A DNA stretch of 64,000 nucleotides from Armatimonadota bacterium. GTDB taxonomy: Bacteria; Armatimonadota; HRBIN16. The notes beneath the pieces are model-generated. The model ran no database searches and had not been told where the DNA came from. It saw only the letters and a program-made list of their open reading frames with translations. The position numbers and the translations under genes were made by a program. The DNA is taken from assembly GCA_963677485.1 (NCBI GenBank), contig OY781964.1, forward strand, positions 3,840,001 to 3,904,000, in the 5' to 3' direction. Shown here piece after piece: positions 3,723-36,465 of this stretch (position 1 is its first letter; each line of letters begins with the position of its first letter).

Positions 3723-3799
3723 AATTCATGCGCTTACGGCGTATACACAAACAAGCACCAGCCCGTGGCGGAACGGCTGCCCAAGCTGCAACTGATACT

Positions 3800-3886
3800 G
3801 TCGTAGGGGCGTCCCTTGTGAGCGCCCTAATCGGTGTCCATTCGATAGTTCATTTTTAGGGCGCCCACAAGGGACGCCCCTACGAC
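3800..3886. repeat. GTAG-family REP doublet (REPIN-like)
   Basis: GTCGTAGGGGCGTCCCTTGTGAGCGCCCTAA followed by its near-perfect inverted copy. Related doublet at 54748-54830. Confidence 0.85.
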
Positions 3887-3909
3887 CAGTCACCTACAAG
3901 AGGTAAAAC

Positions 3910-14700: not shown

Positions 14701-15112
14701 CCGCGCCTTAAAGGACAGTCTATTACCCACAAATATTGCATGGCCAGTAGGTCACCGATTCCGCGACATAAATGTCTCGGCTATTGAACACCAAGACTTC
14801 TGAAGCAGTCTTCATTAACGTTATCTTTGTCGGCAAGGAGCTCCGCAGCCCGGTTTAGCGGGCTTGTTGATCAACAGCCGAGACATTTATGTCGCGGCAC
14901 ATGGTCGATACGATCCCAATCTGGATTTTTGGGTAATAGACTGCCCTAAAGGACGCGGCTTATTATCCGAAAAGCCGGCTCGAAGCCGGCTGCGATACGC
15001 CGTACGTCGTATTTTGGCAAGCCATCCCTTCTCACACCCGGCCACAGAATTCCGGTAGCCGGCTTTGAGCCGGCTTTTCGTCCAATTAGCCGCAGGGCTT
15101 TCAGCCCGCGGC
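14701..15112. repeat. Cluster of two-hairpin REP-like repeats (outer inverted pair interrupted by a MITE)
   Basis: Unit CCGCGCC(T/C)TAAAGGACGCGGCTTATTATCCGAAAAGCCGGCTCGAAGCCGGCT, split at 14715/14944, with an inverted partner at 15056-15112. Confidence 0.75.
14716..14943 (+). mobile_element. MITE-like non-autonomous element, copy 1
   Basis: Terminal inverted repeats CAGTCTATTACCCA / TGGGTAATAGACTG. Flanked by CCTTAAAGGA (14706-14715) and CCCTAAAGGA (14944-14953). Contains an inverted REP pair. Confidence 0.7.
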
Positions 15113-22188: not shown

Positions 22189-22497
22189 CAGTCTATTACC
22201 CACTAGTTTTGCGCGGAGTATTATCGTTGTATATCGATGTATACCTGCCCTACCACGCGCTCAAGCACGTGGCTATTGACCGGCCAAGCCTGCTGAAGCA
22301 GGCTGCAGGGCTTCGCCCTGTTTGTGAAGCTGGCGAATGCAGGCTGTTGTAACGATACTACGGTCGACTCCCGGAACAATTGATACGGTGCGATGTCCCG
22401 TAGGCCGCTTTAGCGGTCTTGATGATCAATAGCCGAGACATTTATGTCGCGGAATCGGCGTCTACTGGCTCCGCAGATATTTGTGGGTAATAGACTG
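22189..22497 (-). mobile_element. MITE-like non-autonomous element, copy 2
   Basis: Same CAGTCTATTACCCAC terminal inverted repeats. The reverse complement of 22400-22497 closely matches 14716-14812. Internal inverted REP pair at 22253-22305 and 22401-22452. Confidence 0.7.
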
Positions 22498-22533
22498 TGT
22501 TTTAGCGCGCGGAAGGGCAGGTGGCATTGCCAC

Positions 22534-34305: not shown

Positions 34306-34340
34306 CCGCGACATCAATGTCTCGGCTATTGACCAGCAAG
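34306..34340 (+). repeat. Left half of the REP-like unit interrupted by IS110
   Basis: CCGCGACATCAATGTCTCGGCTATTGACCAGCAAG matches the 5' part of the intact units at 14761 and 22452 (minus strand). Confidence 0.8.
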
Positions 34341-34399
34341 CATCCGCCCGTGCCTACCCGGCAGCCCATACTGTAACTGATGCGTTTCAGGTACATTTA

Positions 34400-34590
34400 T
34401 AGCACACATCTCTTGACAGCATCCCCGGACAGTCTTTGGTGCATCATAGCCCGTTAGCAAGCATGGGGCGGAAAGGTGGCTGATCAGCCAGATGGTGTAG
34501 TACTCGGTGGCGAACCCGAGTGAACCCGATTACAAGATTTCCCGCATATGCCTTTCCGGCTCGAGATGTGTTCATATTTCTAAGTGTGAG
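34400..34590 (+). ncRNA. Candidate IS110 bridge RNA
   Basis: Structured 260-bp left end: CGGAAAGG/CCTTTCCG stem, ACTCGG/CCGAGT hairpin and TGGCTGATCAGCCA palindrome. Contains short matches to donor (TTACAAG, ATGC) and target (AGCAAG, CAGTCTT). Boundaries approximate. Confidence 0.55.
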
Positions 34591-34599
34591 GATCAAACA

Positions 34600-36039
34600 A
34601 TGGCACAGCACTCTCGAAAAGACAACGCATCTGTAGAGGCCCAGCCTCCTTCCCACTCCCTGCCGTCGCGCCGCGTACCGGCACCTCGGTTCGTAGCTCA
34701 TTACCCGAAAGAGGATCTCCAGGTGATCCACCGCAATGCAGCGGGCATTGACCTTGCAGGGCGCGGCGCTCACTTCATCGCTCTGGAGATCAGTGAAACA
34801 GAGCTTGAGGTCATAGAGGTGGGGGGAATGACCCCGGATCTGACGGTGTGGGTTGAGTATCTGAAATCGCATGCCGTAACTACGGTGGCGATGGAGGCGA
34901 CCGGTGTCTACTGGATTCCGGTGTTCGATGCTCTGGAGAAGGCCGGCATCGAAGTATTTCTGGTGAACCCAAGCCATGCTAAGAATGTTCCTGGACGCCC
35001 GAAAGATGACAAGTTAGACGCACGTTGGTTACAGAAACTGCATAAATTCGGCTTGCTTGCGGCCTCGTTTCGCCCGAGCGATGACATTCGCCCATTGCAA
35101 GAATTCTGGCACCAACGAATTAAACAAGTGGAATTCTGCGGTGATGCGGTCCGTCGCCAGCAGAGGGCTCTGGATATGATGAATCTACGCCCTCACCAGG
35201 TAATAAGCGACCTGGATGGAGTGACTGGTCAGCGTATCGTGGATGCGATCGTGGATGGAGAGCGTGATCCAGTCAAACTGGCGTCATATCGCGATCATCG
35301 ATGTCACTGCACCGATGAAGAGCTTTATGCGGCTTTGACAGGGTATTACCAACCCCACCTGGTGTTCGCTCTCAAGATAGCCCGAAACGACCATCTTTTC
35401 CATCAGGCTCAAATCGCTCAGATCGATGCTCAGATATTACAGCATCTTACTGCGATCATGCCTGAGGAGGTGGATGAGATCACAGAAGCTGTCAGCTTGG
35501 AAACCCACCCAGTCAACCAAGGAAAACATCCACCGCCATTTAATGCTGGTGCGATGGTGACACTGTTTCTGGGTGTAGACCCAACCCAGCTACCAGGAAT
35601 CGGCGGTCTCACAGCTCTGGGCCTTCTGTCTGTGTTAGGCTACGACATGGATAAGTGGAAAACGGATCGACATTTCGGGTCATACCTTGGTCTTGCGCCG
35701 GTTCAAAAGATCAGCGGAGGTAAACGGCTATCGAGCCGTACCCGGCCTGGCATACATCCTGCGGCCGTTCTGTTTCTACAGTCGGCCGTTGCGACTATAC
35801 GTTCTGATAATGCTTACGGTGCTTTCTATAGACGCTTAGCGGCTCGCATTAGCAAACCCAAATCTCTCTATGCCACGGCATACAAAATTGCCAGGATGTA
35901 TTACCATCTGCTCAAAGACGGCCAGCAATACGTTGATCTTGGGGTTCAGGATTACGAAGCGAGGTATCATGCTCATCAAGTCGCTGCCATGAGAAAGAGG
36001 GCCAAGAAGTTAGGTTTCGATCTGATCGAAGCCGTCTGA
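34600..36039 (+). CDS. IS110 family transposase/recombinase
   Basis: DEDD RuvC-like motifs GIDLA, AMEATGVYW and KDDKLDA. Tnp_20 domain LPGIG...SYLGLAP...SGGK. Confidence 0.95.
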   Translation: MAQHSRKDNASVEAQPPSHSLPSRRVPAPRFVAHYPKEDLQVIHRNAAGIDLAGRGAHFIALEISETELEVIEVGGMTPDLTVWVEYLKSHAVTTVAMEATGVYWIPVFDALEKAGIEVFLVNPSHAKNVPGRPKDDKLDARWLQKLHKFGLLAASFRPSDDIRPLQEFWHQRIKQVEFCGDAVRRQQRALDMMNLRPHQVISDLDGVTGQRIVDAIVDGERDPVKLASYRDHRCHCTDEELYAALTGYYQPHLVFALKIARNDHLFHQAQIAQIDAQILQHLTAIMPEEVDEITEAVSLETHPVNQGKHPPPFNAGAMVTLFLGVDPTQLPGIGGLTALGLLSVLGYDMDKWKTDRHFGSYLGLAPVQKISGGKRLSSRTRPGIHPAAVLFLQSAVATIRSDNAYGAFYRRLAARISKPKSLYATAYKIARMYYHLLKDGQQYVDLGVQDYEARYHAHQVAAMRKRAKKLGFDLIEAV

Positions 36040-36155
36040 CCTTATGATTTTCGATGCTTTTAAGCACAATTTCATCGGAGAAGTGCATAGGCAGCTCCGA
36101 CAGGCATTCTATACCCAATAGGTGGTATGATAGCCGTATAAAAGTTACTTACAAG

Positions 36156-36178
36156 ACTGCTGAAGCAGTCTGCGGAGC
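36156..36178 (+). repeat. Right half of the REP-like unit interrupted by IS110
   Basis: ACTGCTGAAGCAGTCTGCGGAGC matches the second hairpin of intact units (AAGACTTCTGAAGCAGTCT at 14793, and CTGCGGAGC tail at 14841-14849 minus). Confidence 0.8.
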
Positions 36179-36195
36179 CGCGCTCTGGCGCCTTG

Positions 36196-36262
36196 TTGCC
36201 AATGTCCGGGGCGGTCTGGCGGATGGTTAGCGGATTCGGAAGGCTCAAGACCGCGCTGGTCT
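36196..36262. repeat. 67-bp stem-loop repeat, copy 1
   Basis: 58 of 67 positions identical to 38997-39063 by manual alignment. Confidence 0.75.
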
Positions 36263-36266
36263 AGGT

Positions 36267-36290
36267 GTAGGGGCGATTCGCGAATCGCCC
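36267..36290. repeat. GTAG-family REP
   Basis: GTAGGGGCGATTCGCGAATCGCCC. Confidence 0.7.
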
Positions 36291-36465
36291 GCCCCCTGCA
36301 GCGAGTTTACTCACCCCACAGTACTGGCGTCCCTAAGGGATCCCCTCACCACTCGTCTGATGGGTCGCCACCCGTAACCGGGCGCAGAGGAGGGTGCGGG
36401 ATTTAGGCTTCGGAGCCTAACTGAAACGAATATCAAAAGTAACTCCAAATATCCCCCAAAACCCC

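Follow-up and report, generated by a model that had tools for sequence, protein, structure and literature searches.

An IS110-family element in a REP linker of an Armatimonadota genome, with a predicted guide RNA and a family of gene-less mini-elements

The mobile element discussed here occupies positions 34341-36151 of a 64,000-nucleotide (nt) stretch of an Armatimonadota genome (contig OY781964.1, positions 3,840,001 to 3,904,000; the whole stretch is called the window) and belongs to the IS110 family of insertion sequences (IS). ISPpu9 of Pseudomonas putida KT2440, an IS110-family element, inserts at one position in repetitive extragenic palindromic (REP) units and has an AG crossover (PMC12288879). 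Its left box of about 43 base pairs (bp) contains an inverted repeat, its right box comprises 16 bp, its guide RNA is stated to lie upstream of the gene, and it displays the same mimicry of donor and target palindromes as the element studied here (PMC12288879). MITEPpu9, a gene-less MITE (miniature inverted-repeat transposable element), carries near-copies of both boxes and is present in 8 copies; minicircles were shown experimentally (PMC12288879). With ISPpu9, an AG crossover had thus already been published for an IS110 element that targets REPs (PMC12288879). IS621 uses a CT core, and in its guide RNA the left-target guide (nt 50-58) precedes the right-target guide (nt 77-80) (PMC11208160, PMC11208158); its target-binding loop follows the plan stem, guide, stem-loop, guide (PMC11208158), and recombination at half-matching sites has been described for it (bioRxiv 10.64898/2026.08.31.748434). 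Multi-branch donor loops have been noted for IS1111-type RNAs (PMC11208160), and a target stem-loop gates ISPpu10 (bioRxiv 10.64898/2026.03.19.712850).

We regard it as very probable that the element in the window is an autonomous IS110-family insertion sequence which integrates by RNA-guided recombination at an AG core. The anatomy of the locus, its empty counterpart, the covariation of predicted guide segments with flanks and element ends, and the covariation of the RNA fold were observed directly and are described below.

The element, its junctions and its REP target

The element lies inside the linker of a REP unit and has CAAG on either side. At the left junction, REP hairpin 1 and the linker lead into CAAG (34337-34340), followed by CATCCG from 34341; at the right junction, the element ends with ...AAAGTTACTTA at 36151, followed by CAAG (36152-36155) and the 16-nt hairpin ACTGCTGAAGCAGTCT. 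Both junctions read letter for letter as the initial annotation had given them. Limits of 34341-36151 count CAAG as flank; with AG as the core, the mobile unit is 34341-36153 plus one AG. The parts of the locus are as follows.

34306-34338, plus strand: left half of the occupied REP unit (left target, LT), hairpin 1 (34306-34325) and linker up to the core; the unit occurs about 140 times in the genome
34339-34340, no strand: AG core on the left, at the end of CAAG 34337-34340; the empty orthologue has one CAAG, and the flanks of a relative (L120) share only AG
34341-36153, plus strand: mobile element proper, 1813 bp if the core is AG; three copies, 97-100% identical
34341-34384, plus strand: left-end module of 44 nt with a conserved hairpin (34344-34364) and subterminal GTAACTG (34373-34379), common to the mini-elements
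34600-36039, plus strand: recombinase gene, intact, 479 amino acids (aa); GAGGA lies 8 nt before the ATG
36142-36153, plus strand: right-end module AAGTTACTTA plus CA (left donor, LD), containing AGTTAC, inverted relative to GTAACT of the left end
36154-36171, plus strand: AG core on the right (36154-36155), followed by REP hairpin 2 (right target, RT)

The insertion is site-specific with a short core on both sides, and shows neither long terminal inverted repeats nor a long duplication. A subterminal repeat is present, GTAACT(G) at 34373-34379 and AGTTAC at 36143-36148, separated from the left end by 32 nt and from the right end by 3 nt.

The encoded protein carries the domains DEDD_Tnp_IS110 (PF01548, E = 6e-17, profile positions 1-152 of 155) and Transposase_20 (PF02371, the C-terminal transposase domain, E = 1.4e-12), and reaches 192.5 bits against a cut-off of 140 with NCBIfam NF033542 ('IS110 family RNA-guided transposase'), in agreement with the family named in the initial annotation. 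In a local alignment to the IS621 recombinase (PDB 8wt6), in which two stretches align, E99, D137, D140 and S372 fall on the E, D, D and S of IS621, with S372 paired to the serine of YESGSS. D51 (in GIDLAG) is assigned solely by its position in the domain. D51, E99, D137, D140 and S372 are the catalytic candidates. The nearest proteins outside the genus, on genome contigs and plasmids, are 42-44% identical, and a search of genome contigs for closer relatives suited to covariation analysis returned none above 44%. A metagenome scan revealed one relative at 68% identity, on a contig that ends within the left end of that relative. As to the host lineage, the best ValRS match with a name comes from a Blastocatellia MAG and, at 60% identity, is uninformative.

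The genome of the window (G000, a single contig of 5.22 Mb) holds three full copies, namely the window copy and copies b and c (at C1:1100548-1102358 and 137577-139387), with 97-100% identity across query positions 1-1811. All three have the same ends, are preceded by ...GGCTATTGA-NNNN-CAAG and are followed by CAAG and hairpin 2, so that mapping of the full copies in this genome gave the common ends and the common place in the repeat which the initial annotation had anticipated. Of the three, only the window copy has an intact recombinase gene, as the reading frames of copies b and c, which are identical to each other (0 differences over 1811 positions), are interrupted by a stop at codon 410. 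A sister genome of the same genus (G001) contains three close copies (L112, L117 and L119, about 94% identity) and one relative at 71% identity (L120). Two of the three close copies occupy the identical REP position. The third, L117, abuts a mini-element within a REP unit: its left neighbour is the right end of the mini-element and its right neighbour is REP hairpin 2, and over L117:1093-1240 the two stand in tandem with one CAAG in common. At the G001 locus orthologous to the window site the element is absent, and the left-flank match and the right-flank match have exactly four bases in common, namely one CAAG. Hence, the insertion is precise and younger than the split of the two genomes. The 23 public runs listed all consist of assembled contigs; in the four that were compared, skips of about 1818 nt with other letters between them represent other REP copies.

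The target is a true REP family, i.e. a short palindromic extragenic unit in many copies. With a 26-mer at up to 4 mismatches, 140 units were counted in the whole genome of the window; 104 continue with CAAG and hairpin 2 (empty), 15 with the left-end motif of the element, and 21 with something else. One of the three Y1_Tnp genes of the genome (C1:2992049-2992381) is flanked by inverted REP units, two plus-strand units upstream and two minus-strand units downstream, as in genes of REP-associated tyrosine transposases (RAYT). The REP nature of the target and the presence of several empty targets, both claimed in the initial annotation, are thereby borne out. In the window, the right-hand 20-mer has three matches at up to 3 mismatches, against 0.00 expected (100 shuffles). 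Joining the flanks by script yields an unoccupied site of 51 nt, with which the four unoccupied units named in the initial annotation were compared. Three are true empty copies, and the fourth, at 22253, is a variant unit.

14761-14811, plus strand: empty REP unit, 47 of 51 positions identical to the reconstructed site
22402-22452, minus strand: empty REP unit, 44 of 51 identical
14847-14897, minus strand: empty REP unit, 41 of 51 identical
22253-22304, plus strand: variant REP unit, 25 of 51 without gaps; the first hairpin differs, linker and second hairpin are common

The empty REP units at 14719-14945 and 22192-22500 form inverted pairs within longer blocks resembling MITEs or bacterial interspersed mosaic elements (BIMEs), and these blocks are bounded by inverted CAGTCTATTACCCAC / GTGGGTAATAGACTG.

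The limits of the core follow from the relative L120. Its left flank ends with ATAG and its right flank starts with CAAG, while its left-target guide ends with ..GATAG and its donor guide with ..ACAAG (the guide segments are described below). In 61 more distant relatives, left-target and donor guides share only AG, with which both end. Taken together, the bases common to donor and target are AG, and the guides of L120 further indicate that the CA preceding AG belongs to the target on the left side and to the element on the right side. This is what the initial annotation had guessed, an AG core within CAAG. Of the alternatives to the whole reading, the one that survives best, although we consider it unlikely, is that all of CAAG is shared or duplicated, either as a 4-bp core or as a target duplication. 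All six close copies and most mini-elements do show CAAG on both sides, and one recently moved mini-element is flanked by CGAG on both sides. However, in L120 the positions -4 and -3 differ in origin by side; among 48 mini-elements the left-hand position -4 is variable (C 29, T 10, G 5, A 4), whereas on the right 46 of the 48 begin with C; and AG is all that the two guides have in common among the 61 relatives.

The predicted guide RNA

The non-coding stretch of the element measures 259 nt upstream of the gene against 112 nt downstream. Within the upstream stretch, a structured RNA of two modules is predicted, from which a covariance model (R1) was built with four local sequences.

34405-34560, plus strand: predicted guide (bridge or seek) RNA, 156 nt, two modules; consensus fold, model R1 and covariation
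34423-34468, plus strand: predicted target-binding module
34469-34558, plus strand: predicted donor-binding module
34428-34436, plus strand: predicted right-target guide segment; the right flank AAGACTG has CAGTCTT (34430-34436) as its reverse complement, and segment and flank co-vary in three variants
34454-34463, plus strand: predicted left-target guide segment; AGCAAG (34456-34461) repeats the final 6 nt of the left flank and co-varies with it
34530-34536, plus strand: predicted left-donor guide TTACAAG, which repeats the final bases of the right end together with the core and is single-stranded in the fold

The right-target guide thus precedes the left-target guide in the 5' to 3' direction, and the CA that follows AGCAAG in the left-target segment equals the first 2 nt of the element. 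In the consensus fold of the four sequences, the two target guides lie on opposite sides of an internal loop, which has a CCCCG/UGGGG closing stem and encloses a small stem-loop. The second module has a closing stem of 9 bp and a multi-branch loop, and contains the single-stranded TTACAAG.

Over the seven local copies, both target segments change together with the flanks, giving four natural variants of guide and flank. In the following list, the right-target guide is given as its reverse complement.

Window copy: left-target guide TTAGCAAG, left flank ..CCAGCAAG; right-target guide AAGACTG, right flank AAGACTG
Copies b and c: left-target guide TTAACAAG, left flank ..AAACAAG; right-target guide AAGACTG, right flank AAGACTG
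L119: left-target guide TCAACAAG, left flank ..ATCAACAAG; right-target guide AAGACCG, right flank AAGACCG
L112: left-target guide TCAACAAG, left flank ..ATCAACAAG; right-target guide AAGACCG, right flank AAGCCCG
L117, beside the mini-element: left-target guide TCAACAAG, left flank ..CTTACAAG (5-nt match); right-target guide AAGACCG, right flank AAGCCCG
L120 (71% identity): left-target guide AAAGATAG, left flank ..GGAGATAG; right-target guide AAGGAGG, right flank AAGGAGG

The target of L120 is a non-REP sequence, and both guide segments of this element match it. Copies b and c carry a left-target variant of their own (AACAAG); their flanks fit this variant, but not the one found in the intact copy. 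Accordingly, a defective copy may be guided by its own RNA with protein supplied in trans, or the 409-aa product may still be active.

The same RNA is found in distant relatives. Model R1 matches beside the recombinase gene in 61 relatives from other phyla, mostly directly upstream of the gene; in four of them (L071, L072, L079 and L099) the RNA lies downstream, which suggests that it moved between the element ends within the clade. Among these four, L099 alone passed the threshold for the alignment used for covariation, which was made from covariance-model matches and holds 65 rows with 64 distinct sequences. In the distinct sequences, 93.1% of the cells are paired against 72.0% after shuffling, and in 31 of the 34 RNA pairs both partners show compensatory changes. 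Covariation scores 0.496, compared with 0.163 after shuffling (none of 500 shuffles reach 0.496) and 0.05-0.10 with slid partners, although the alignment was fitted to the model itself and hence favours the structure, which has to be counted on the opposing side.

The guide segments of these relatives likewise follow their own junctions. In the 52 loci with enough flank, the left-target segment recurs at the left junction over at least 8 nt in 41, compared with 1.7% in swapped pairings; in most cases the matching stretch precedes the RNA by 60-90 nt (24-110 overall). The left-donor segment equals the relative's own right end over at least 7 nt in 54 of 61 loci, compared with 4.5% in controls with guides taken from loci with a different 7-mer. 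A conserved motif that follows the gene, ...AGTTTCTT-NNN-AG, ends with this match, and the donor guides comprise 15 different 7-mers, all ending with AG. Complementarity to the right target is weaker, with a mean longest match of 3.73 against 2.99 +/- 0.12 (maximum 3.49) over 200 shuffles.

Several further observations on this RNA and on the relatives were made. Beyond the 7-nt guide, the stretch 34430-34453 resembles an ACACC-type REP linker read as its reverse complement; judged by eye, about 20 of 24 positions agree, with one T in excess. L120 keeps the scaffold part TGGTGCAT of this stretch despite its unrelated target, and the likeness may be due to chance, ancestry or extended pairing. 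GGGCGGA (34466-34472) was considered as a right-donor guide, as it complements bases 3-9 of the element, but was rejected because it lies in predicted stems and does not co-vary in L120. Among the relatives, L066/L067, L088/L090, L155/L162/L169, L073, L094 and L194 sit after ...TGTCAT(T/C)NCGAG, apparently within another palindromic repeat family. A 15-bp inverted repeat of L066 and L067 was rejected as terminal repeat, since the flanks form it and both copies lie in one palindromic repeat, and clustered differences between L066 and L067 were rejected as marks of the guides, since they cluster near the right end instead. An Rfam scan of the element returned no family (E up to 1), a terminator scan of the element returned none, and the sole promoter-like site lies on the minus strand across the right junction. 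A covariance-model search for orphan guide-RNA genes in G000, G001 and a draft genome (G002) recovered nothing but the seven element copies of the first two genomes and had no match in G002.

Gene-less mini-elements

The 44-nt left end of the element recurs well beyond the three full copies in G000. A search with a 23-nt core of the left-end module (up to 5 mismatches) yielded 106 matches in this genome, where we estimate that about 1 would arise by chance. In 45 of the 106, the right-end motif follows within 600 nt, against about 0.6 expected from motif density. The sequences indicate about 90 gene-less mini-elements which share the 44-nt left end and the right end of about 10 nt with the full element. 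Paired mini-elements are 71-489 bp long and fall into classes of about 140 bp (13), 234 bp (7-8) and 282-285 bp (15). They hold no recombinase gene and nothing of the RNA module, which starts 64 nt into the element, and they keep exactly the 7 nt matched by the donor guide. The hairpin of the left module combines a conserved stem with a variable loop. Pairing is found in 75% of the stem cells, compared with 23-37% for slid partners, and the L120 type shows compensation at two pairs. Guides of their own within the mini-elements were rejected, as the longest matches between body and flanks equal the values for swapped flanks (5.11 vs 5.21 and 5.14 vs 5.12). Both ends are like those of the parent IS, a transposase gene is absent and the copies are many, as in MITEs.

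The flanks of the mini-elements read R-R-Y-A-A-G on the left and C-A-A-G-(C/A) on the right. The left flanks follow the left-target guide (A-A/G-C-A-A-G), while the right side conserves little beyond the core. In REP units lie 7 of 48 paired elements (the three full copies included) and 11 of 58 unpaired left ends; since most mini-elements are outside REPs, ends of this family are not strictly specific to REPs. Recent movement is indicated by three 140-bp elements from separate loci, one of them non-REP, which are 98.6-99.3% identical, compared with a class median of 81%. The window itself contains one mini-element.

3756-3896, plus strand: mini-element, 141 bp, with the same kind of ends, flanked by ...ACAAG and CAAG outside any REP; G001 has it at the orthologous site

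To judge from this shared position, it is old and predates the split of G000 and G001. From these data, mini-elements were most likely moved in trans. An Rfam scan of 20 mini-element loci returned nothing beyond a 28-bit chance match to a viral microRNA family.

A rival view, to which we give slightly less weight than to a shared CAAG, takes the mini-elements to be an older, independent repeat family which is moved by another enzyme and whose ends the IS shares or has borrowed. The divergence of most mini-elements (see the class median above), their position mostly outside REPs and the age of the window mini-element would fit such a history. On the other hand, the left-end motif adjoins the three copies of the studied element and none of the 15 other IS110-domain matches (18 in total in the genome). 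It is abundant only in the two genomes with the element, with 93 counts in G000, 47 in G001, 2 in G002, which has no recombinase match, and 0-1 in 18 other relatives (reversed-pattern control: 0-2). Retention of exactly the 7 donor-guide nucleotides, left flanks that follow the left-target guide, and near-identity of three mini-elements at different loci likewise speak against this view.

Modular short repeats (e.g. GTCCGGGGCGGTCTG...CAAGACCGCGCCGGTCTGGCGG and the 31-nt inverted repeat GTCGTAGGGGCGTCCCTTGTGGGCGCCCTAA) are found at window positions 36190-36400 and at many other loci. They constitute the bodies of the 140-, 234- and 283-bp mini-elements, also occur without element ends, and have no Rfam match. 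Outside the window, a second, unrelated IS110-family element of about 1821 bp is present in ten near-identical copies in G000:C1 (e.g. 722038, 1067416, 1660886). In 8 of the 10, the left end abuts or includes the palindrome GGGCG-N-TTCGCGAA-N-CGCCC, and the right flanks are unique; one copy of this palindrome lies just right of the studied element, at window positions 36262-36290.

Mechanism and comparison with known systems

Based on this dataset, we propose a mechanism in which a guide RNA of two modules is encoded in the left end, ahead of the recombinase gene. The recombinase with this RNA would pair the joined form of the element, in which right end and left end meet (RE-LE), with a REP linker. 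The 3' single-stranded stretch of the second module would pair with the element end (TTACA plus AG), and the DEDD/Ser recombinase would exchange strands at AG between the RE-LE donor and the REP linker, leaving AG on both sides. One or two changes of guide bases may suffice to retarget the element to another variant of REP linker or hairpin. Gene-less mini-elements would retain the donor ends only, i.e. the 44-nt left module and AGTTACTTA. Transcription, a circular donor, catalysis and mobilisation in trans may be assumed by analogy with IS621, ISEc11 and ISPpu9.

A number of findings weigh against this mechanism. Two of the three G001 copies have one mismatch to their own right-target guide, and the register of this guide shifts by 1-2 nt between variants. 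Folding of the single RNA sequence gave a structure no more stable than those of shuffles (z = 0.89). A promoter scan of the element returned no sigma-70-like promoter on the plus strand, inspection by eye of the would-be RE-LE junction revealed no promoter there, and a search of the RNA for a right-donor guide yielded none. Most mini-elements match the left-target side only. The 10-nt word set by both target guides has 15 unoccupied sites (17.8 expected by composition), 12 outside REPs and 3 in empty REPs. As the full copies of the window genome are all in REPs though the word stands unoccupied elsewhere, pairing alone does not explain the REP bias. Target and donor alike have a hairpin after the core, namely hairpin 2 in the former and the left-end hairpin in the latter. 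Purifying selection against insertion in genes could be an alternative cause of the bias.

Two further explanations appear highly improbable. A Y1 transposase of the IS200/IS605 or RAYT type might move the element and the mini-elements, inserting them 3' of CAAG; the three Y1_Tnp genes in the genome, the hairpin in the left end and the insertion beside a fixed tetranucleotide lacking a long duplication are compatible with this. However, the three full copies contain no Y1 gene (the open reading frames of the window copy amount to the IS110 gene, and the other copies match it over 1811 bp), the right end has no matching hairpin, and internal guide segments that co-vary with the flanks are not predicted by such a mechanism. 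Just as improbably, the flank-like segments of the left end might be REP remnants picked up by recombination and devoid of guide function, as the REP-linker likeness of 34430-34453 could indicate, but two segments match the non-REP target of L120, and in other phyla the left-target and left-donor segments match the junctions of their own elements, with the right-target segment weaker and still above control.

Going beyond RNA-guided integration at AG, we tentatively entertain a joint reading, which we consider possible but doubtful: a distinct architectural class of bridge recombinases, combined with a burst of half-matching mini-donors and with defective copies that borrow protein. The clade-wide AG core, an RNA with a guide order of the IS1111 type which moved to the left end while remaining downstream in a few members, and the 479-aa recombinase may be the features of such a class. 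The approximately 90 guide-less mini-donors may have integrated where only the 6-nt left-target guide and the core match, and may thus constitute a natural record of half-match events. The copies with a stop at codon 410, which have their own guide variant and matching flanks, may use their own RNA and borrowed protein.

For genome biology, the locus is ordinary, in that a REP-targeting IS110 element with a MITE has already been described. Its value lies in the fact that donor ends, occupied and empty targets and four target-tracking guide variants are all readable from two genomes. The RNA family defined here matched no Rfam 15 family in our scans and may already be contained in tables of PMC11208160 or PMC12288879. 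Left-target and left-donor guides are predicted for about 60 further AG-core recombinases, which are candidates for bridge-recombinase engineering with a non-CT core. Full copies in REPs and mini-elements mostly elsewhere allow the roles of the target hairpin and of one-sided pairing to be tested in nature.

With respect to classification, the element is a member of the IS110 family with mixed subgroup features. In sequence terms, the loops of its non-coding RNA appear to match both target strands (four variants; 41 of 52 relatives), and the donor junction is represented by the left-donor guide. It shares the long upstream non-coding region of the narrow IS621-like group, but its left-target guide does not lie 5' of its right-target guide. 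From the IS1111 group it has the guide order, but neither inverted repeats of 11-13 bp nor a downstream RNA.

The available descriptions of IS621 (PMC11208160, PMC11208158) agree with the present element in the REP target, the DEDD/Ser recombinase and a left-end RNA with a target module and a donor module; in left guides that have the sense of the top strand and right guides that are antisense; in a 2-nt core included in the pairings; and in bases after the guide that match the other partner, i.e. the handshake-like CA after the left-target guide. The element differs from these descriptions in its AG core instead of CT, in the reversed order of the target guides, in a donor module with a multi-branch loop, and in its protein of 479 aa compared with 326-328 aa, of which only two local stretches align. 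As described for seekRNAs of the IS1111 type (ISEc11, ISPa11, ISKpn4), the complement of the top strand lies 5' of the complement of the bottom strand, a subterminal inverted repeat is present, followed on the right by 3 nt (TTA) when CAAG is counted as flank, and close relatives display natural reprogramming (PMC11187229). On the other hand, its RNA region is upstream and not downstream of the gene, for which that paper notes rare exceptions, and its inverted repeat measures 6-7 bp instead of 11-13 bp and lies 32 nt instead of 7 nt from the left end (PMC11187229).

ISPpu10 resembles the element in a hairpin located 5' of the paired target stretch (here REP hairpin 1), and full copies in REPs despite matching 10-mers elsewhere, known here from sequence alone, may be a further likeness (bioRxiv 10.64898/2026.03.19.712850). 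The mini-element flanks and the G001 copy abutting a mini-element would fit the one-sided, half-match recognition reported for IS621 (bioRxiv 10.64898/2026.08.31.748434). Pseudomonas loci among our matches, none of them established as ISPpu9, show 35-37% protein identity and no match to the RNA model. ISPpu9 with MITEPpu9 is the closest described system, as REP target, AG crossover, left box, short right box and MITE are shared. MITEPpu9 was the only IS110-linked MITE found in a non-exhaustive survey of the literature. Compared with its 8 copies, the mini-elements described here number about 90 and lie mostly outside REPs; this large mini-element family and the clade-wide RNA model are the new additions.

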